A model generated the notes under the pieces. The model was not told the DNA's origin. It worked only from the letters and a program-made list of their open reading frames with translations, and ran no database searches. Shown here piece after piece: positions 52,542-57,577 of a stretch of 64,000 nucleotides of DNA (positions are counted from its first letter, which is position 1; every line of letters begins with the position of its first letter). Made by a program: the position numbers and the translations under genes. Source of the DNA: a phage; the sequence record PX104379.1. One strand, 5' to 3'.

Positions 52542-53013
52542 TTGTTTTACCTAAAACAATAGTAGGATTATCATCAAATTCATGAATTTTGAGTAAATTT
52601 GGATTTAAACTATTCCATACAGAAGAAATAAAGTATGATAAAGCATCTTCACTCACAATTATAAATTTATTTCCTTTATCTATTTTCCAACTATATACTG
52701 AATCATATGAATAGAAAGATAAAGGTTTATCATTATATTTTTCTGTGTTAACATTAATGTATTCGGATTTAGTAAATGCTTCAATTGCTCTAAATGGAAT
52801 ATTTGGTACAGTTTCAATAATACCAATCTTTTTAAGTTTTATTTCAGCATCTTCTGGAACTGGCATTGAAACGAAATTTTCTACGAGATACATTGGGTCA
52901 CAATAACCCTTATCAATCATTACGGCTACAGTAATTGGAACATCTTTAGCAAACGACATGTTATTACTGCTAATATACATTTCAAACAAAATCGCTTCCA
53001 TAATTTTCCTCAA
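52516..53013 (-). CDS. hypothetical protein, 165 aa
   Basis: ORF track. Confidence 0.55.
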
Positions 53014-53342
53014 TCACAAGATGTAGATGAACAACCAGAATCACAAGAACTTCCACATGAATCGCCTGCCCATACATGAACAGGAACATTCGTATCATAT
53101 GAATCAGAACTAGACTGTGTATTAGATGATGTAGTAGGTACTGACCAGCGCCAAGGATTTTTATAATATTCTTGGGCTTCTTCATAAGTCATAGTGACTG
53201 CTTCTACTGTTCCATCTCCCATATAAACATACTCAACTACAGTTAAAGGAAGGTAGTCATTTGAAATAGGAACTACACCTTCCCCAGGAGTCGTAGAGAA
53301 AAAATCCGTAAAGAAACTTTTAAACCAATTAAAGATAAACAT
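53010..53342 (-). CDS. hypothetical protein, 110 aa, with Cys/Ser-rich C-terminal tail
   Basis: C-terminus ...[18 protein letters not shown]. Confidence 0.5.
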
Positions 53343-53548
53343 TACAAAAAGCCTCTTTTGAATTCAACTTGTTTATCGCCATAATCATATCGAATCTCTG
53401 CATTAAATTCAACAGAACCATCTGCGTACATCATAAATGAATGCACAACAACTTCTGTAGACCATGGTTGTAGTTCATATTTCTTCATTACATGCCGTGA
53501 AATGATAATATCTAAATCTTCATTTGGTTTAATCCAACGATTTAACAT
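53342..53548 (-). CDS. hypothetical protein, 68 aa
   Basis: ORF track; early promoter upstream. Confidence 0.5.
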   Translation of the reverse strand: MLNRWIKPNEDLDIIISRHVMKKYELQPWSTEVVVHSFMMYADGSVEFNAEIRYDYGDKQVEFKRGFL

Positions 53549-53569
53549 AGTGCTCTCCTCTATAAGATA

Positions 53570-53612
53570 ATTCTATTATACCATACTCATTTTGATATGT
53601 AAACCATTTAAA
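53570..53612 (-). promoter_or_regulatory. T4 early-type promoter
   Basis: Plus strand ctattatacc ... tgtaaacc. Confidence 0.45.
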
Positions 53613-53613
53613 T

Positions 53614-53638
53614 GAAAAAGGACTCCCGAAGGAGTCCT
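53614..53638 (-). terminator. rho-independent terminator after soc (GGACUCC-UUCG-GGAGUCC plus U-run)
   Basis: Same hairpin sequence as the terminator at 560..585. Confidence 0.7.
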
Positions 53639-53643
53639 TGAAT

Positions 53644-53889
53644 TTATTCACCAGTTACTTTCCACAAATCTTCGTTTGCAGTAATCCATTCAGTACGTTG
53701 ATTTTCTTCATATACTGTAGAATATGCTGCTTTTTCTGAAGGGAATGTCTGGTAATGAGCACCAGAAATTTTATGAACGTCAGAATAAAGAGGGAAAGCT
53801 ACGGAAATTTCCTTTCCTTCAATTTTCTTATTTCCATCTAATTTCTGCTCAAATGTTTTGATATTAACATAACCGCGAGTACTAGCCAT
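53644..53889 (-). CDS. soc: small outer capsid protein Soc
   Basis: Sequence MASTRGYVNIKTFEQKLDGNKKIEGKEISVAFPLYSDVHK recognised as Soc. Confidence 0.95.
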   Translation of the reverse strand: MASTRGYVNIKTFEQKLDGNKKIEGKEISVAFPLYSDVHKISGAHYQTFPSEKAAYSTVYEENQRTEWITANEDLWKVTGE

Positions 53890-53919
53890 GTAATTCTCCT
53901 TTTATTTAAATTACATGAT

Positions 53920-53927
53920 TATTTATA
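53920..53927 (-). promoter_or_regulatory. T4 late promoter TATAAATA for soc
   Basis: Exact TATAAATA on the minus strand about 30 nt upstream of the soc ATG. Confidence 0.65.
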
Positions 53928-53957
53928 ATAAATTCTCGCGGCTTTTAAGACGAGCTG

Positions 53958-54476
53958 TTAATAACCTCGGTCCTGACGAGCAAAGTTCTCGGCATTTTTC
54001 AGATAATAAAGTTTAAAGATTTCTTCTGCTGTAAGACCAAGACCCTGGAACATATTCAGAACGAAATGAAGAATATCAATCATTTCAAATTTAATTTCTA
54101 ACTGGTCTTGTGGAGACAAATCAGTAATCAGAGTTTCACGACGTTCACCATGCTGCGACTTCCAAGGTTTCCATACAGCAGATGCGTCTTTTTCACCATT
54201 ACTCATACCACCAAGAGAAGTCAGAAGTTCACGGAATTCATCGTCAATATAATCTTTCTGATTACGCAACCAATCAACAACTTCACCGGCAGTAGCCAAG
54301 TCATCAGGATGACGATTATATTCAGGTTTATCTTTAGCTAAACGAATCTGCAGAGATTTCTGCATGTCAAGCATTACCTGCAGCGGGTCTTTTTCATCAC
54401 CGAGAATATCCCAATATTCATTTTGAGCTTTATCAGCGCCTTCGATCAGTTGACTACATTCGTTGAAATGTGGCAT
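53958..54476 (-). CDS. 56: dCTP/dCDP pyrophosphatase gp56 (MazG-like), 172 aa
   Basis: 171-172 aa; recognised as T4 gp56. Confidence 0.9.
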   Translation of the reverse strand: MPHFNECSQLIEGADKAQNEYWDILGDEKDPLQVMLDMQKSLQIRLAKDKPEYNRHPDDLATAGEVVDWLRNQKDYIDDEFRELLTSLGGMSNGEKDASAVWKPWKSQHGERRETLITDLSPQDQLEIKFEMIDILHFVLNMFQGLGLTAEEIFKLYYLKNAENFARQDRGY

Positions 54477-54477
54477 G

Positions 54478-55128
54478 TTATTTTTCCTTTCTTATGAAGT
54501 TTTCTATCATATGTCTATAGCAGATATTAGGATAACCTGCCTTGACAGCTATTTTATTAAATTTTGTGCGCTTAGGTCTATTATTATAAACCCATAATTC
54601 ATAAAGCGCATCATAACTATTCCATATTTCTCCTCGCCTAGGATTTGGTAAACCATATCGAGGTGAATTTTTACCGCTAAATCTTCCTTTTCGGGCTTTA
54701 CTCATATTAGCCTTGGCTTCATCGGATATAATTTTACCTTTATGAGCTAGACGCATTTTGGCTTTAGTTTCTTCTGGGGTCTTTTTGCCTTTAATCCATG
54801 ACGGCTTGCCATATCTAGGATTATTTTCACCCGAGAAAAGAACAGAGTTTTGGATTTTAAGGGTTTCTATTAATCTACTTGTTAATTTAACACCTTTATT
54901 ATATCGCATTAAATTTACAGCATAATGCAATCCTCTCACATCTGGATATATTTTAGTTAATAATCTATGAGCTATAAAATGCTCACGCGCAGTTAACTCA
55001 ACAAGATTGTTTTTGTCATCTGCTCCTCCTATACATCTAGGAATTATATGATGGCGTTCTTTATATCCGCCAAGATGCCGGCATTTAGCTTTTGTAATTA
55101 AAGCCGAGTAAATTTTTTGGTAATTCAC
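54478..55128 (-). CDS. HNH homing-endonuclease-like protein with NUMOD3 DNA-binding repeats, 216 aa
   Basis: HNH motif ERHHIIPRCIGGADDKNNLVELTAREHFIAH; two NUMOD3-like repeats (PEETKAKMRLAHKGK, SDEAKANMSKARKGR). Confidence 0.8.
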   Translation of the reverse strand: MNYQKIYSALITKAKCRHLGGYKERHHIIPRCIGGADDKNNLVELTAREHFIAHRLLTKIYPDVRGLHYAVNLMRYNKGVKLTSRLIETLKIQNSVLFSGENNPRYGKPSWIKGKKTPEETKAKMRLAHKGKIISDEAKANMSKARKGRFSGKNSPRYGLPNPRRGEIWNSYDALYELWVYNNRPKRTKFNKIAVKAGYPNICYRHMIENFIRKEK

Positions 55129-55198
55129 ATATATCCTTTCAATTCATGGGTTAGTAGATTAATTATACAATAAATATATAAAGCAATAAGGAGGATAT

Positions 55199-55399
55199 AT
55201 GGTACAAAAATTAATGGCACTTGTTAATGCCATAAAAGGTAATAAAAAACGTATAGCTTTTACTATTTCTGCTATGGTAGGAATTTTACTCTGGAACTTT
55301 ATTTTATCACCAATTGCAATTGCGCATGGTGTTAATATTCCAGTAGTTACTCTTGATACATTCGTAGATCTAGCATTTGCTTTAGTTGGGTTAATTTAA
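55199..55399 (+). CDS. small membrane protein, 66 aa, opposite strand to the surrounding early genes
   Basis: Strong AAGGAGG Shine-Dalgarno 7 nt upstream of the ATG; hydrophobic helices; no overlapping minus-strand ORF. Confidence 0.55.
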   Translation: MVQKLMALVNAIKGNKKRIAFTISAMVGILLWNFILSPIAIAHGVNIPVVTLDTFVDLAFALVGLI

Positions 55400-56424
55400 A
55401 TCTTGGCATATTTAGATAGCCGCATTTTAGCCATTAACCCCTGGGCAATATTATTTTTCATATATTCCATAATTTGTTCAGGGGTTGCACCTTCCTTTCT
55501 AATCATATCATTGACATCTTTTGATTTCCAGGGAGATTTATCCCAAAACATAACCCTTTCTCCTGCATCAACTAATTTAGTCATTCGTTTGATAGTGTCA
55601 GGGTGACGAGGTTCATTATCTAAAACCCACACTCGTCTATCTTTAAATGGAACAATTTCTAGGTCTAATTGACCACCCGTAATAGCTATACCATTTTCAA
55701 TAAAAAGTGAATCTATAGGTCCTTCTAGAACATATACATCACCATCTTTAACTCGTTCGACTCCATATATTTTTGTTGCCTCAGGATAAGCTTTGATGGT
55801 GATATATTTTTGAGGAGCATCTTTCTTTAATGCACGTCCTTGAAAAGACTCAGCTTTTCCATTAGCATTATAAATTGGAATAACAAGACGAGGCTCAGAA
55901 ATTTCCTTTTTGTATGTTCCCGGTGCTATGCTATTAACTAATTTAGGCCATTCAGTTGTAAACCAAAGATATTTCCATTTATCCTTTGGAATACAACGAG
56001 CTTTTACATATTTTATAATTGGATGGTCTTCCGCCAGTTTATCTAATCTAACACATGACGGAAGAGATTTAATTATTTTCTTCTCAAGTTGTTTAGGAAG
56101 TTCTTTAGGTTTTTCTACTGGACGACTTTTACCTTTTTCTTTTCTTATTTCAAAGATATACTCACGATATAAATCAGGTTCAAACTCCTTTAAATATATT
56201 CCGATTGGTGCATGATAGTTACAGTTATAACAATGAATATTTCCTTCATTATTATCACCATAATACCATCCACGAGCTTTATTCTGGTCGGTTTTTGAAT
56301 CTCCACAAACAGGGCATCTAAACCGTAATTTAAAAGTTGAACTATTATTTACTTGTGTGAATTTAGGTAAATGAGCTAATGCACGATACGCAAACTCATT
56401 ATCAATCCAAGGTATTGATGACAT
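55396..56424 (-). CDS. 61: DNA primase gp61, 342 aa
   Basis: 342 aa; N-terminal zinc-binding CPVCGDS ... CYNCNYH; Toprim-like core. Confidence 0.9.
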   Translation of the reverse strand: MSSIPWIDNEFAYRALAHLPKFTQVNNSSTFKLRFRCPVCGDSKTDQNKARGWYYGDNNEGNIHCYNCNYHAPIGIYLKEFEPDLYREYIFEIRKEKGKSRPVEKPKELPKQLEKKIIKSLPSCVRLDKLAEDHPIIKYVKARCIPKDKWKYLWFTTEWPKLVNSIAPGTYKKEISEPRLVIPIYNANGKAESFQGRALKKDAPQKYITIKAYPEATKIYGVERVKDGDVYVLEGPIDSLFIENGIAITGGQLDLEIVPFKDRRVWVLDNEPRHPDTIKRMTKLVDAGERVMFWDKSPWKSKDVNDMIRKEGATPEQIMEYMKNNIAQGLMAKMRLSKYAKI

Positions 56425-56426
56425 TT

Positions 56427-56591
56427 TTACTCTTCTTTTTCTTTAGATTCCTCTTTTTTCTTTTTAGGAATCTGTTCAGGACCTTTATTTACTACAGCAC
56501 CTGATGTTGTTCCAGTAGAGATATTTTCAGGATTACCACCTGAATCTCCAGCAACCATATCTTCTTTAATAAATTCTTTATATGTTTTCAT
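56427..56591 (-). CDS. small charged ORF, 54 aa, hand-called
   Basis: Hand translation MKTYKEFIKEDMVAGDSGGNPENISTGTTSGAVVNKGPEQIPKKKKEESKEKEE; fills the gap between the 61.1-like ORF and gene 61. Confidence 0.35.
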   Translation of the reverse strand: MKTYKEFIKEDMVAGDSGGNPENISTGTTSGAVVNKGPEQIPKKKKEESKEKEE

Positions 56592-56592
56592 A

Positions 56593-56949
56593 TTAACCTC
56601 TATTCATAAAAGCATTAAAAATTTGGTCATCAATAGATGGCACAGTAATATTTTCTGCATCATTTAGCAAATCATTAATTTCATCGGATAGCATAACACA
56701 TGTACCTTTATTTCCTGTAATTGTTACTGCGCAATTACGAACGTTTTCTTTATTAAATTTTAGGTTAATATTTTCGTAATGAAAATCCTTTAATGCTGAA
56801 TATATTTTTAAAATAAAATTGTCTTTTACTACAATAAACCCAACCTCACTATTAAAACGTGGTTCATGGAAACTGTAATAAACCTTTTCATCTATAAAAT
56901 CGTATGAAATTTTTTCCATTTTTAAATATGAAAATTCAGAACTATACAT
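56593..56949 (-). CDS. hypothetical protein, 118 aa (61.1-like); C-terminus shared with the next ORF
   Basis: C-terminal ...SIDDQIFNAFMNRG identical to the C-terminus of ORF 56951..57577. Confidence 0.55.
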   Translation of the reverse strand: MYSSEFSYLKMEKISYDFIDEKVYYSFHEPRFNSEVGFIVVKDNFILKIYSALKDFHYENINLKFNKENVRNCAVTITGNKGTCVMLSDEINDLLNDAENITVPSIDDQIFNAFMNRG

Positions 56950-56950
56950 A

Positions 56951-57577
56951 TTAACCTTTATTCATAAAAGCATTAAAAATTTGGTCATCAATAGAAACAT
57001 TTACTTTAGACTGTTTTTCTGATGGTAATTCATATCCACATATTACAATTTTGTGATCAATATCAAAATACACAGAAGCAATATGATTAATGATGTTTTC
57101 AGTAAAGTCTAAATCAACATCAATATCTTTTTGACCACAGCCCAAAGGATAAATAATGCGAGTAATTCGATTATCTTTAACAAATATTCCACCGACATAC
57201 TCTGTGCTGCGTTTAAAGTCTACACGCCGACGAAATGAAAAATATTCAGGCTCTCTATGAGCTCGGCTCATAGGACACAACGAGTAACTAGAATAAGAGA
57301 TGTCAAATCCTACACCTTCGATATGAGCCAAAGTGTTATGATTAAACCAATTATAATCGTACGCCAAATCCATTAGATTATAATATGTAAAAGGCACCGG
57401 ATTAACATCATTAGTCACAAGCATGTAATTAGCAACTGCTATAATTTCATTGTTTTTAACGAATACAAACCGTGATTGATGCGAATGACCTGGACCCGCG
57501 TTTTCACGATTAATGATATAACACTGGGCACCTTTATATTTGTATGTATCTCTGCACTTGTGCATTTGATAGAGCAT
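56951..57577 (-). CDS. hypothetical protein, 208 aa (61.2-like)
   Basis: ORF track; C-terminal ...SIDDQIFNAFMNKG. Confidence 0.55.
   Translation of the reverse strand: MLYQMHKCRDTYKYKGAQCYIINRENAGPGHSHQSRFVFVKNNEIIAVANYMLVTNDVNPVPFTYYNLMDLAYDYNWFNHNTLAHIEGVGFDISYSSYSLCPMSRAHREPEYFSFRRRVDFKRSTEYVGGIFVKDNRITRIIYPLGCGQKDIDVDLDFTENIINHIASVYFDIDHKIVICGYELPSEKQSKVNVSIDDQIFNAFMNKG

Follow-up and report, generated by a model that had tools for sequence, protein, structure and literature searches.

A Mob-type HNH endonuclease cassette, probably a homing insertion, and a resident conserved small ORF between genes 56 and 61 of a T4-like phage

Gene content of the interval between genes 56 and 61

The window, that is, the whole stretch of 64,000 nt that was analysed (phage record PX104379.1), carried two ORFs between gene 56 and gene 61, both of which had been recognized in a reading made from the sequence alone (sequence-only reading; Table 1). 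The products of genes 56, 61 and soc were assigned by tblastn against T4. The minus-strand ORF encoded a 216-aa HNH protein with two NUMOD3-like repeats, and the divergent plus-strand ORF a 66-aa hydrophobic protein (ORF66). The Shine-Dalgarno (SD) sequence of ORF66 (AAGGAGG, 55188-55194) was strong and located 4 nt ahead of the ATG, and the end of ORF66 overlapped that of the convergent gene 61 by 4 nt, as the sequence-only reading had described.

The HNH gene and ORF66 had a control region of 70 bp in common, and their translation-initiation regions formed a perfect 10-nt inverted repeat (I13). Transcription of gene 61 might end at the terminator-like hairpin located in the 5' portion of ORF66. 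A scan of 53000-57000 with Rfam resulted in no RNA family.

Table 1. Positions of genes and sequence elements in and around the interval between genes 56 and 61 of the window.
Feature	Position	Strand	Basis
Gene 56 (dCTPase/dUTPase), flanking gene, presumed endonuclease target	53958..54476	-	ORF, Pfam, tblastn vs T4
First 34 nt of gene 56 (ATGCCACATTTCAACGAATGTAGTCAACTGATCG), co-converted flank	54443..54476	-	Comparison across genera
HNH/NUMOD3 ORF, 216 aa, GTG start	54478-55128	-	ORF list
GAAAGGA, right copy, in HNH codons RKEK*, serving gene 56	54485..54491	-	Empty vs filled junctions
Two NUMOD3 DNA-binding repeats, aa ~99-132 and 136-167	54628..54834	-	Pfam, PDB profile, direct repeat
HNH catalytic domain, aa 1-98	54835..55128	-	Alignment invariants, PDB profile match, AF2
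GAAAGGA, left copy, original gene 56 SD, now before HNH GTG	55134..55140	-	Empty vs filled junctions
MotA-type middle-promoter-like element (TATTGCTTTA, 11 nt, TATAAT)	55162..55185	-	Sequence
Late-promoter-like octamer AATAAATA, A(-13) variant of TATAAATA	55169..55176	+	Sequence
66-aa hydrophobic ORF (ORF66)	55199-55399	+	ORF list
Terminator-like hairpin and T-run, early strand, within 5' part of ORF66	55214..55233	-	Consensus scan only
Gene 61 (DNA primase), flanking gene, 99% identical to T4 gp61	55396..56424	-	ORF, tblastn vs T4

The HNH cassette: protein, insertion site and spread

The 216-aa protein matched PHROG 655 'homing endonuclease' (1.3e-59) and, in two stretches, Pfam NUMOD3 (PF07460; E = 8e-7, 29.3 bits against a cut-off of 20.4), with the NUMOD3 cores GENNPRYG at aa 100 and GKNSPRYG at aa 152. 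At the DNA level, the NUMOD3 repeats appeared as a direct repeat (D1; 54653-54675 and 54809-54831, spacing 156 nt). The match to Pfam HNH alone was sub-threshold (18.8 bits against a gathering score of 21.4). The HNH motif read E24-x-H26-H27-IIPRC-x-GG...N41-LVELTARE-H50-FIA-H54, and H26, H27, N41, H50 and H54 were unchanged throughout 44 aligned homologues, which bears out the HNH core assigned by the sequence-only reading. Profile comparison with the PDB matched residues 20-50 to the HNH domain of McrA (6ghc; E = 0.0038) and residues 106-144 to the DNA-binding domain of I-TevI (1i3j; E = 0.0058). The AF2 model (pLDDT 81 overall, and 90-96 for residues 1-70) contained the beta-beta-alpha arrangement that defines an HNH fold (24-27/42-45/47-60), and a three-helix module C-terminal to the NUMOD3 repeats. 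Fold searches with the whole AF2 model resulted in no significant match, phmmer with the single HNH sequence against the PDB was uninformative, and NCBIfam returned nothing useful.

Homologues of the HNH protein numbered 2682, most of them with NUMOD3, and the full-length ORF was present at 80% identity or more in about 58 records. With tblastn, MobE of T6 was 45% identical over aa 1-165 (E = 3e-27), where the similarity ended, and MobD of RB7/VR26 was 35-37% identical across the full length. The features that define the Mob family (PMC2790892, PMC2988022) were all found: the N-terminal HNH domain common to MobA-E, a protein-specific C-terminal region, and a free-standing intergenic gene, located downstream of a mot-box promoter-like element that would express it. 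By its sequence, the 216-aa protein is a free-standing T-even HNH homing endonuclease of the Mob family, with predicted nuclease activity. A literature search resulted in no paper on this HNH gene; one database record calls this gene 'putative mobile endonuclease D'.

Comparison of empty sites (L004 and L038) with filled sites (window and phage ELT1) resolved the junctions of the insertion, and placed the HNH cassette exactly between the SD and the ATG of gene 56. In the empty site, AATTGAAAGGA was followed directly by AAAATAATGG; in the filled site, AATTGAAAGGA was followed by TATATGTG at one junction, and AGAAAGGA by AAAATAACATGCC at the other. The repeat GAAAGGA was present on both sides of the insertion, and its right copy was followed by AAAATAA-C-ATG of gene 56. 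Presence or absence of the cassette was thus polymorphic at one precise site among close relatives, as is the case with homing genes. Judged by its sequence, the MotA-type element would serve as promoter of HNH-56-soc, and it corresponds to P(M)16.53 of T4, from which the oriA primer is made. The T4 homologue is given as a mot-box promoter in X01416 and with an oriA note in NC_000866.

Nucleotide identity between window positions 54451-55150 and Mosigvirus SSE1 was 96-100%, against 40-88% in the flanks, and protein identity to SSE1 was 98% for HNH, 80% for gp56, 73% for gp61, 54% for ORF66 and 47% for Soc. The HNH protein of the Jiaodavirus copy was 92.6% identical, against 61% for gp61. Gene 56 had the same first 34 nt in the window, in Mosigvirus SSE1 and in Jiaodavirus 15882-6-1, with 78-80% protein identity in the rest of the gene, and these 34 nt differed from the HNH-less Tequatrovirus allele at 9 positions. 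Mismatches of gene 56 to L004 numbered 9 in the first 40 nt, and 1-5 per 40 nt beyond. The 34-nt flank was native to a Jiaodavirus-like locus without the HNH gene (L022/L046), and looks Jiaodavirus-derived in these comparisons. The sharply bounded identity block, including the 34-nt flank, reads as a clear signature of horizontal spread, that is, of the lateral movement with a co-converted flank that characterizes homing genes.

The substitutions in the 5' end of gene 56 were also considered as immunity mutations. In a linkage test in which IMG/VR was scanned for ATGCCACATTTCAACGAATGT, the same gene 56 5' sequence was found without HNH in L007 (a Tequatrovirus, dam-56) and in L022/L046. A VR5-type HNH copy (79% identical) adjoined a different gene 56 5' end. 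Because the polymorphisms were not strictly linked to HNH, the immunity claim was dropped and the reading as a co-conversion tract was kept.

ORF66 as a resident gene

T4 had ORF66 at the same position (L001, 4239-4439) with 64 of 66 aa identical, unannotated in RefSeq, and did not have the HNH gene there; of the difference from T4 proposed in the sequence-only reading, the part that concerned the HNH gene stood, and the part that concerned the small ORF did not. The ORF66 protein matched PHROG 2024 (1.5e-31, residues 2-66), as did all 23 of the aligned family members. The family was present in 693 phage records at 694 places, and is essentially single copy. It was convergent with gene 61 in most loci retrieved, with gp61 identity down to ~60%. 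Identity of ORF66 between genera was 20-55%, and the family was under purifying selection (pN/pS 0.17-0.20), with variable sites mainly in third position (57 vs 26 and 15). The family was confined to short phage proteins (84 clusters, and 21 representatives among 1.84 billion proteins); a deep HMM search for more distant relatives recovered only these 21 short representatives, and linked ORF66 to no known family. A literature search resulted in no paper on the 66-aa ORF.

ORF66 had the conserved motif W32-N33...P38.A40...G44...P48, and helices at 2-11, 15-42 and 52-63 in the AF2 model. Hydropathy and AF2 predicted an N-in orientation with a transmembrane (TM) helix at ~aa 19-42, and the gene is therefore predicted to encode a small N-in membrane protein.

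On the evidence of its distribution and conservation, ORF66 is an ancestral gene of T4-like enterobacterial phages, unrelated to the HNH insertion, because almost none of the 693 records that contain it have the HNH gene as well. The partnership of both ORFs suggested by the sequence-only reading was not sustained by this distribution. A functional tie between the two genes, with ORF66 as a partner in, for example, immunity or regulation, would agree with their divergent adjacency, the common 70-bp control region, and the inverted repeat I13 across both translation-initiation regions. However, records with this HNH gene numbered about 58-85 only, T4 has ORF66 without it, and it is only the absence of dam that makes the two genes divergent neighbours in the window. 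Those observations, together with the conservation across genera at a pN/pS of ~0.2, make both a tie of this kind and a chance ORF extremely improbable.

The octamer AATAAATA was located 12 nt upstream of the SD of ORF66, and overlapped the divergent middle promoter. The motif xATAAATA, or a close variant, was kept ahead of ORF66 family members whose upstream DNA was unrelated in other respects, and AGGAGG was also conserved there. A perfect TATAAATA was present upstream of the family member in L013, L015 and L040. Of the 50 T4 late promoters listed in PMC2988020, 9 have the A(-13) variant, and the motif upstream of ORF66 in T4 itself has G at -13, a rarer deviation. This conserved motif of 7-8 nt indicates that ORF66 is probably transcribed late.

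A small and probably late membrane protein might be a holin-like or lysis-timing protein, and some matches of the ORF66 family pointed in that direction: Pfam GTA_holin_3TM in three family members (E 0.03-0.08), the PHROG holin families 3427 (5e-4, 2e-3) and 11161 (0.012), and one UniRef entry named 'Holin'. All of the Pfam and PHROG holin matches were, however, below threshold and typical of the composition of TM segments, and the window's ORF66 protein itself had no match to Pfam or to a holin family. It has no charged C-terminal tail, ending instead in the hydrophobic ...FALVGLI. The gene is never beside lysis genes in T4-like phages, where it adjoins the primase gene 61, and the single non-T4 context examined had no clear lysis cassette. 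Since T4 already has holin T as well, a holin-like role for the family seems quite unlikely. A broader proposal, possible although doubtful, is that ORF66 is a T4 late gene overlooked in annotation since the first sequencing, with a small inner-membrane protein (motif WN...P.A...G..LP), shared among T4-like enterobacterial phages, as its product. Transcription of ORF66, dependent on gp55, would extend antisense into gene 61, and the gene could have a part in membrane events late in infection (lysis timing or assembly), in late primase shut-off, or in both.

Origin of the interval and comparison with known homing systems

The interval thus probably holds two unrelated things, an inserted homing-endonuclease cassette and the resident conserved ORF66. 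The sequence-only reading had placed dam between 56 and 61 of T4, which the T4 record confirmed, and had left open whether the HNH gene was an insertion or a replacement. A Dam homologue was not detected anywhere in the 64-kb window, that is, outside the 56-61 interval as well as in it (tblastn, E < 1e-4), and the HNH gene lies roughly in the place of dam, as would result from a single event that swapped one for the other. Yet all four haplotypes were present in relatives (none, dam only, HNH only, and HNH plus dam), from which it follows that HNH did not replace dam. Phages ELT1 and IME537 had both genes, with HNH between 56 and dam (56-HNH-dam-ORF66-61), and L004, L005 and L038 had neither (56-ORF66-61); empty sites without dam and HNH had the window's own 40-bp promoter segment. 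T4-type dam was present in only ~184 phage records, against 503 Tequatrovirus-level records with ORF66 (counts from the GenBank phage collection; Tequatroviruses are few in IMG/VR). The loss or gain of dam is a separate indel, with about two thirds of the Tequatrovirus records lacking the gene, and a single swap is very improbable. The homing-type insertion polymorphism remained, and the replacement of dam was discarded.

In the homing process proposed, the cassette would have come to separate the SD of gene 56 from its start codon, capturing the original GAAAGGA for the GTG of HNH, and the last HNH codons would supply a replacement SD for gene 56. HNH would be co-transcribed with 56-soc from the MotA-type middle promoter upstream. 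In a mixed infection, the HNH product would, by analogy with MobE, most likely nick or cut HNH-less genomes at or near the 5' end or the ribosome-binding site of gene 56, and repair by recombination from HNH+ genomes would copy the cassette with a short flank (the first 34 nt of gene 56). In the window, the cassette may have reached a haplotype already without dam, either by landing there or by recombination.

Cutting by the HNH protein is a predicted activity, and the gene might instead be a relic, in decay or already defunct as with I-TevIII of T4, non-cutting and kept by linkage to the essential gene 56. L007, with the HNH-type right junction and without HNH, is a probable loss derivative; in the SSE1 copy a change of 1 nt fuses the HNH gene to gene 56, and in the L036 copy the N-terminus is altered. 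Still, the catalytic and structural HNH residues are all intact and invariant, and the full-length ORF persists in the close copies counted above. Near-identical copies in three genera within sharply bounded blocks also argue for a recent active spread and not for a long decay, and a relic is on balance unlikely, with recent homing remaining the preferred reading.

In T-even phages, local marker exclusion and mosaicism stem mainly from free-standing homing endonucleases. An HNH homing gene upstream of gene 56 is ordinary for this group, and conceptually nothing new. The locus is an unusually clean natural example, in which four haplotypes were sampled and the junctions are known to the nucleotide. 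The near-identical cassette in three genera and the hitch-hiking piece of gene 56 make the target site and the co-conversion tract directly testable. The cassette lies between an oriA-type middle promoter and gene 56, and gene 56, the target of SegF in T4, would here also be the target of an HNH enzyme encoded on its opposite side. The T4 reference has no annotation for a conserved and selected gene beside the primase gene, probably for a late small membrane protein, which is a small and concrete gap in a model genome.

MobE of T4 and T6 resembles the window's protein in its N-terminal HNH domain, and both genes are free-standing, intergenic and directly upstream of a conserved gene of nucleotide metabolism, and rely on an upstream phage promoter, a predicted one in the window. 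MobE, located upstream of nrdB, nicks nrdB near its 5' end in phages without mobE, and flanking polymorphisms are co-inherited (PMC2790892). They differ in locus (nrdA/nrdB for MobE, upstream of gene 56 in the window), in the C-terminal half, which in the window's protein consists of two NUMOD3 repeats and the three-helix module, with a presumably different target specificity, and in translation start, with a captured SD and a GTG in the window and a start that overlaps the stop of the upstream gene in MobE. MobD of T4 aligns with the window's protein over the full length, but at low identity and from another locus (nrdC.11/mobD.1 in T4; PMC2988022), and is a paralogue, not an orthologue.

SegF of T4, a GIY-YIG homing endonuclease encoded between 56 and soc, acts on gene 56 and is a cause of local marker exclusion (PMC2330249; PMC2988022). 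It was absent from the window (tblastn vs T4). Gene 56 is its landing pad and target, as is presumed for the window's HNH protein, whereas the nuclease family and the side of gene 56 are different. The segF-linked gene 56 allele of T4 had 74% protein identity to that of the window, against 99% for neighbouring genes. The window's NUMOD3 repeats are shared, at the level of the profile match to 1i3j, with the DNA-binding domain of I-TevI, and the extended architecture, in which a modular DNA-binding tail follows the catalytic domain, is of the type of I-TevI and of two-domain HNH enzymes such as I-HmuI. I-TevI differs in that it belongs to the GIY-YIG enzymes and is encoded in an intron.

Layout of the interval and the HNH endonuclease

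The window was a segment of a Tequatrovirus (T4-like) genome, with 96-98% identity to many T-even phages of Escherichia and Shigella over positions 40000-64000. The features that a sequence-only reading had described between genes 56 and 61 were all present: a 216-aa minus-strand ORF, and a 66-aa plus-strand ORF (ORF66) with AAGGAGG and a 4-nt overlap with gene 61 (Table).

Table. Features of the window around genes 56 and 61
Feature	Position	Strand
Strong bidirectional terminator-like hairpin (9 bp, 5 GC, GAAG loop) just downstream of soc	53618-53639	
soc	53644-53889	-
Gene 56, dCTPase	53958-54476	-
216-aa HNH ORF, GTG start	54478-55128	-
Out-of-frame ATG-TGA start-stop (ATATGTGA) overlapping the HNH GTG	55126-55131	-
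Perfect 10-nt inverted repeat (CATATATCCT / AGGATATATG) in the divergent HNH and ORF66 translation-initiation regions	55128-55137, 55192-55201	
TATTGCTTTA-N11-TATAAT, middle-promoter-like	55185-55162	-
AATAAATA, late-promoter-like octamer, overlapping the middle-promoter-like element	55169-55176	+
ORF66, AAGGAGG 4 nt before ATG	55199-55399	+
Gene 61, primase	55396-56424	-

The 216-aa protein matched PHROG 655 ('homing endonuclease'; 1.3e-59), and Pfam NUMOD3 scored above threshold on two stretches, in agreement with the two repeats claimed earlier. Pfam HNH was slightly under its gathering score (18.8 vs 21.4 bits), and the HNH core was therefore tested directly by alignment with 43 diverse homologues drawn from the 2682 found. 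Residues Y3, Y22, E24, H26, H27, P30, G35, N41, E49, H50, H54, L56 and L57 were invariant, and the HNH core proposed from sequence thus stood, with H26, H27, N41, H50 and H54 among them. The alignment profile matched the McrA HNH domain (residues 20-50; E = 0.004) and, across the first NUMOD3 repeat, the I-TevI DNA-binding domain (E = 0.006). The AlphaFold model (pLDDT 81) predicted a beta-beta-alpha core (beta 24-27, beta 42-45, helix 47-60), followed by low-confidence linkers bearing the NUMOD3 helices and by a C-terminal three-helix module; global fold searches with the model gave no significant match.

By tblastn, the protein was 45% identical to T6 MobE over aa 1-165 and 35-37% identical to MobD over its full length. 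Mob proteins are defined by a common N-terminal HNH domain and a protein-specific C-terminal region (PMC2790892; PMC2988022), and sequence comparison places the 216-aa protein in this T-even family. Orthologues occurred in about 58 phage records at ≥80% identity and in 27 more at 60-80%, many already named 'homing endonuclease'; a literature search found no experimental paper on the gene and no description of its locus. The HNH gene is an ordinary, sharply bounded addition to the Mob-type homing endonucleases.

Insertion site and independence from dam

The gene 56 regions of T4, ELT1 and ph0021 and 42 IMG/VR loci were classified by tblastn, and all four haplotypes were found: 61-ORF66-56 (L004, L005, L038), 61-ORF66-dam-56 (T4, L043; the short contig L007 spans only dam-56-soc), 61-ORF66-HNH-56 (window, ph0021, about 30 records) and 61-ORF66-dam-HNH-56 (ELT1, IME537). 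Written in the early-transcription sense, the empty site was CCCATGAATTGAAAGGA joined to AAAATAATGGCATAC, and the filled site CCCATGAATTGAAAGGA joined to TATATGTG (HNH) and, at the other end, AGAAAGGA joined to AAAATAACATGCCACAT. The cassette therefore lay exactly between the gene 56 Shine-Dalgarno and ATG. The old gene 56 Shine-Dalgarno would serve the HNH GTG, and the last codons of the cassette (RKEK-stop) provide a new copy of GAAAGGA for gene 56. The precise junctions, with the PHROG 655 match, upheld the homing-type insertion proposed earlier.

Upstream in the dam-less haplotype, the TATTGCTTTA-N11-TATAAT element resembled a MotA-box middle promoter; its T4 counterpart is P(M)16.53, annotated as a mot-box promoter in GenBank X01416 and tied to the oriA primer transcript in NC_000866. 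The out-of-frame ATG-TGA at the HNH start might lower translation, and was not kept in the Klebsiella HNH copy (ATCTGTGA).

The T4 order was 56-dam-61, as the sequence-only reading had stated. Its suggestion that the HNH gene had replaced dam was ruled out: the dam indel was independent of the HNH gene, with all four combinations occurring and both genes coexisting in ELT1 and IME537. T4-type dam was found in about 184 records, and ORF66 at ≥90% identity in 503. No Dam homologue was detectable by tblastn within the 64-kb window, in the interval or beyond it, and in complete genomes with the window's arrangement the dam portion of the junction query matched at no second place.

Other ORFs varied at this hot spot. 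One Tequatrovirus genome carried an extra 186-aa ORF between ORF66 and dam (L006 2601-3161, +; PHROG 8706, annotated unknown function, E = 6e-116), a further indel. Many non-Tequatrovirus T4-like loci (L013, L015, L016, L029-L035, L039, L040) had between 61 and 56 a MazG-like NTP-pyrophosphohydrolase ORF of 93-101 aa (MNxxQHAxLKLxEEC..., PHROG 4856), where Tequatroviruses have dam or nothing. The locus L036 1100-5300 (IMG/VR 2974741249) was scrambled: gene 61 was in fragments and partly duplicated, gene 56 was present as two tandem partial copies, the HNH copy was altered at its N-terminus, a Seg-like ORF was truncated, and another HNH ORF, of 265 aa and different from the first, lay between 56 and soc. 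Either this is a hot spot riddled with homing endonucleases or the sequence is misassembled.

ORF66, a conserved small ORF

ORF66 was not the partner of the HNH gene that it had been taken for. Of the difference from T4 claimed for this interval, the HNH part held, T4 having dam rather than the HNH gene, and the small-ORF part failed: T4 has ORF66 at the same position (L001 4239-4439, +; NC_000866 17738-17938; 64/66 aa identical), within the 310 bp from dam to gene 61 that NC_000866, X01416 and K03113 leave without annotation. By tblastn, 693 phage records contained ORF66, with 694 places in all and so essentially a single copy per genome; many of them name it 'hypothetical protein'. It matched PHROG 2024 (annotated unknown function). 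Most of the T4-like loci compared, with gp61 identity down to about 60%, had a hydrophobic ORF of 61-74 aa that runs towards the gene 61 stop from the other strand and, in most of them, overlaps it alike. Members shared W-N-[FYL]-x3-P-x-A-x3-G-x2-[LI]-P and formed two subtypes, both in tandem in Mosigvirus-like loci (IMG/VR L012 and L037, between 61 and 56: subtype A, MLKLSSLIQAIKG..., and subtype B, MGTLFYQIWKL..., convergent with 61). In L014 the second copy was apparently truncated N-terminally. Among the Tequatrovirus copies pN/pS was 0.17, and among those of subtype B it was 0.20, with variation mostly at third codon positions. The family was confined to phages and small: it comprised 84 clusters, and 1.84 billion proteins yielded 21 representatives.

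Family members were preceded by AGGAGG and, a further 8-20 nt upstream, by xATAAATA or a sequence close to it, in otherwise unrelated DNA; three loci had a perfect TATAAATA, and the window had AATAAATA, the commonest natural T4 late promoter variant (9 of 50 listed sites; PMC2988020). In the predicted protein, a basic N-terminus precedes a TM helix (about residues 19-42), which a short loop connects to a hydrophobic helix at the C-terminus. A lysis role seems unlikely, every holin-like match of the family being sub-threshold and the genomic context giving no support. The best guess is a protein of the inner membrane, made late, with a transcript that in addition extends antisense into gene 61. 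ORF66 is conserved, under selection and probably late-expressed, a small predicted membrane-protein gene that the T4 reference annotation lacks; it is a more curious result than the HNH gene, though a by-product.

Horizontal spread and proposed homing

Protein identity between the window and the Mosigvirus SSE1, a Shigella phage, was 98% for the HNH protein vs 73% for gp61, 80% for gp56, 54% for ORF66 and 47% for Soc. In 50-nt windows, nucleotide identity was 0.96-1.00 over 54451-55100 and 0.90 at 55101-55150, and beyond this block fell to 0.70 towards gene 56 and to 0.58 towards ORF66. In a Jiaodavirus Klebsiella phage, HNH gene identity was 92.6% vs 61% for gp61. The common block included the first 34 nt of gene 56 (ATGCCACATTTCAACGAATGTAGTCAACTGATCG), the same in all three genera and also the native gene 56 5' end at L022/L046, a Jiaodavirus-like locus that lacks the HNH gene; against HNH-less Tequatrovirus alleles, the first 40 nt differed at 9 positions and later stretches at 1-5 per 40 nt. 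This flank may be read as a co-conversion tract carried along in homing, possibly from a Jiaodavirus-like donor. The IMG/VR contig 3300006879_000208 (L007 880-1060), a Tequatrovirus dam-56 locus, had the HNH-type right junction (GAAAGGAAAAATAACATGCCACATTTC...) without the HNH gene, and is so probably a precise cassette loss or a recombinant. A VR5-type HNH copy (79% identical) adjoined a different gene 56 5' end; these two cases limit any claim of target immunity for the gene 56 5' changes.

The HNH gene is also internally mosaic, from comparison of its NUMOD3 part (54551-54800) with its HNH domain (54851-55128). Nucleotide identity to the VR5 variant was 94-100% in the former and only 42-78% in the latter, and to the Klebsiella variant, in reverse, 74-82% (up to 96% at the 3' edge) and 84-100%. 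In SSE1 (L056 2464-3636; MK639187), an A5-to-A4 change in GGAAAAATAAC brought the HNH ORF and gene 56 into one reading frame. The resulting CDS of 390 aa, recorded as 'homing endonuclease', reflects either a true HNH-dCTPase fusion or a homopolymer error in sequencing.

Gene 56 is a known target of SegF in T4 x T2 crosses (PMC2330249). Window and T4 gp56 (L001 2771-3286) were only 74% identical, with adjacent Soc and gp61 at 99%; the T4 allele is linked to segF, which was absent from the window. Gene 56 alleles among relatives were strongly mosaic along their length. MobE, encoded upstream of nrdB, nicks nrdB nucleotides 122-126 in mobE-less phages (PMC2790892). By analogy, the probable target of the HNH enzyme is the gene 56 5' end or ribosome-binding site, or DNA close by, which it would nick or cut in HNH-less genomes; repair from a co-infecting HNH-bearing genome would then copy in the cassette with a short flank. 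As with MobE and nrdB, the HNH gene lies immediately upstream of its presumed target, gene 56.
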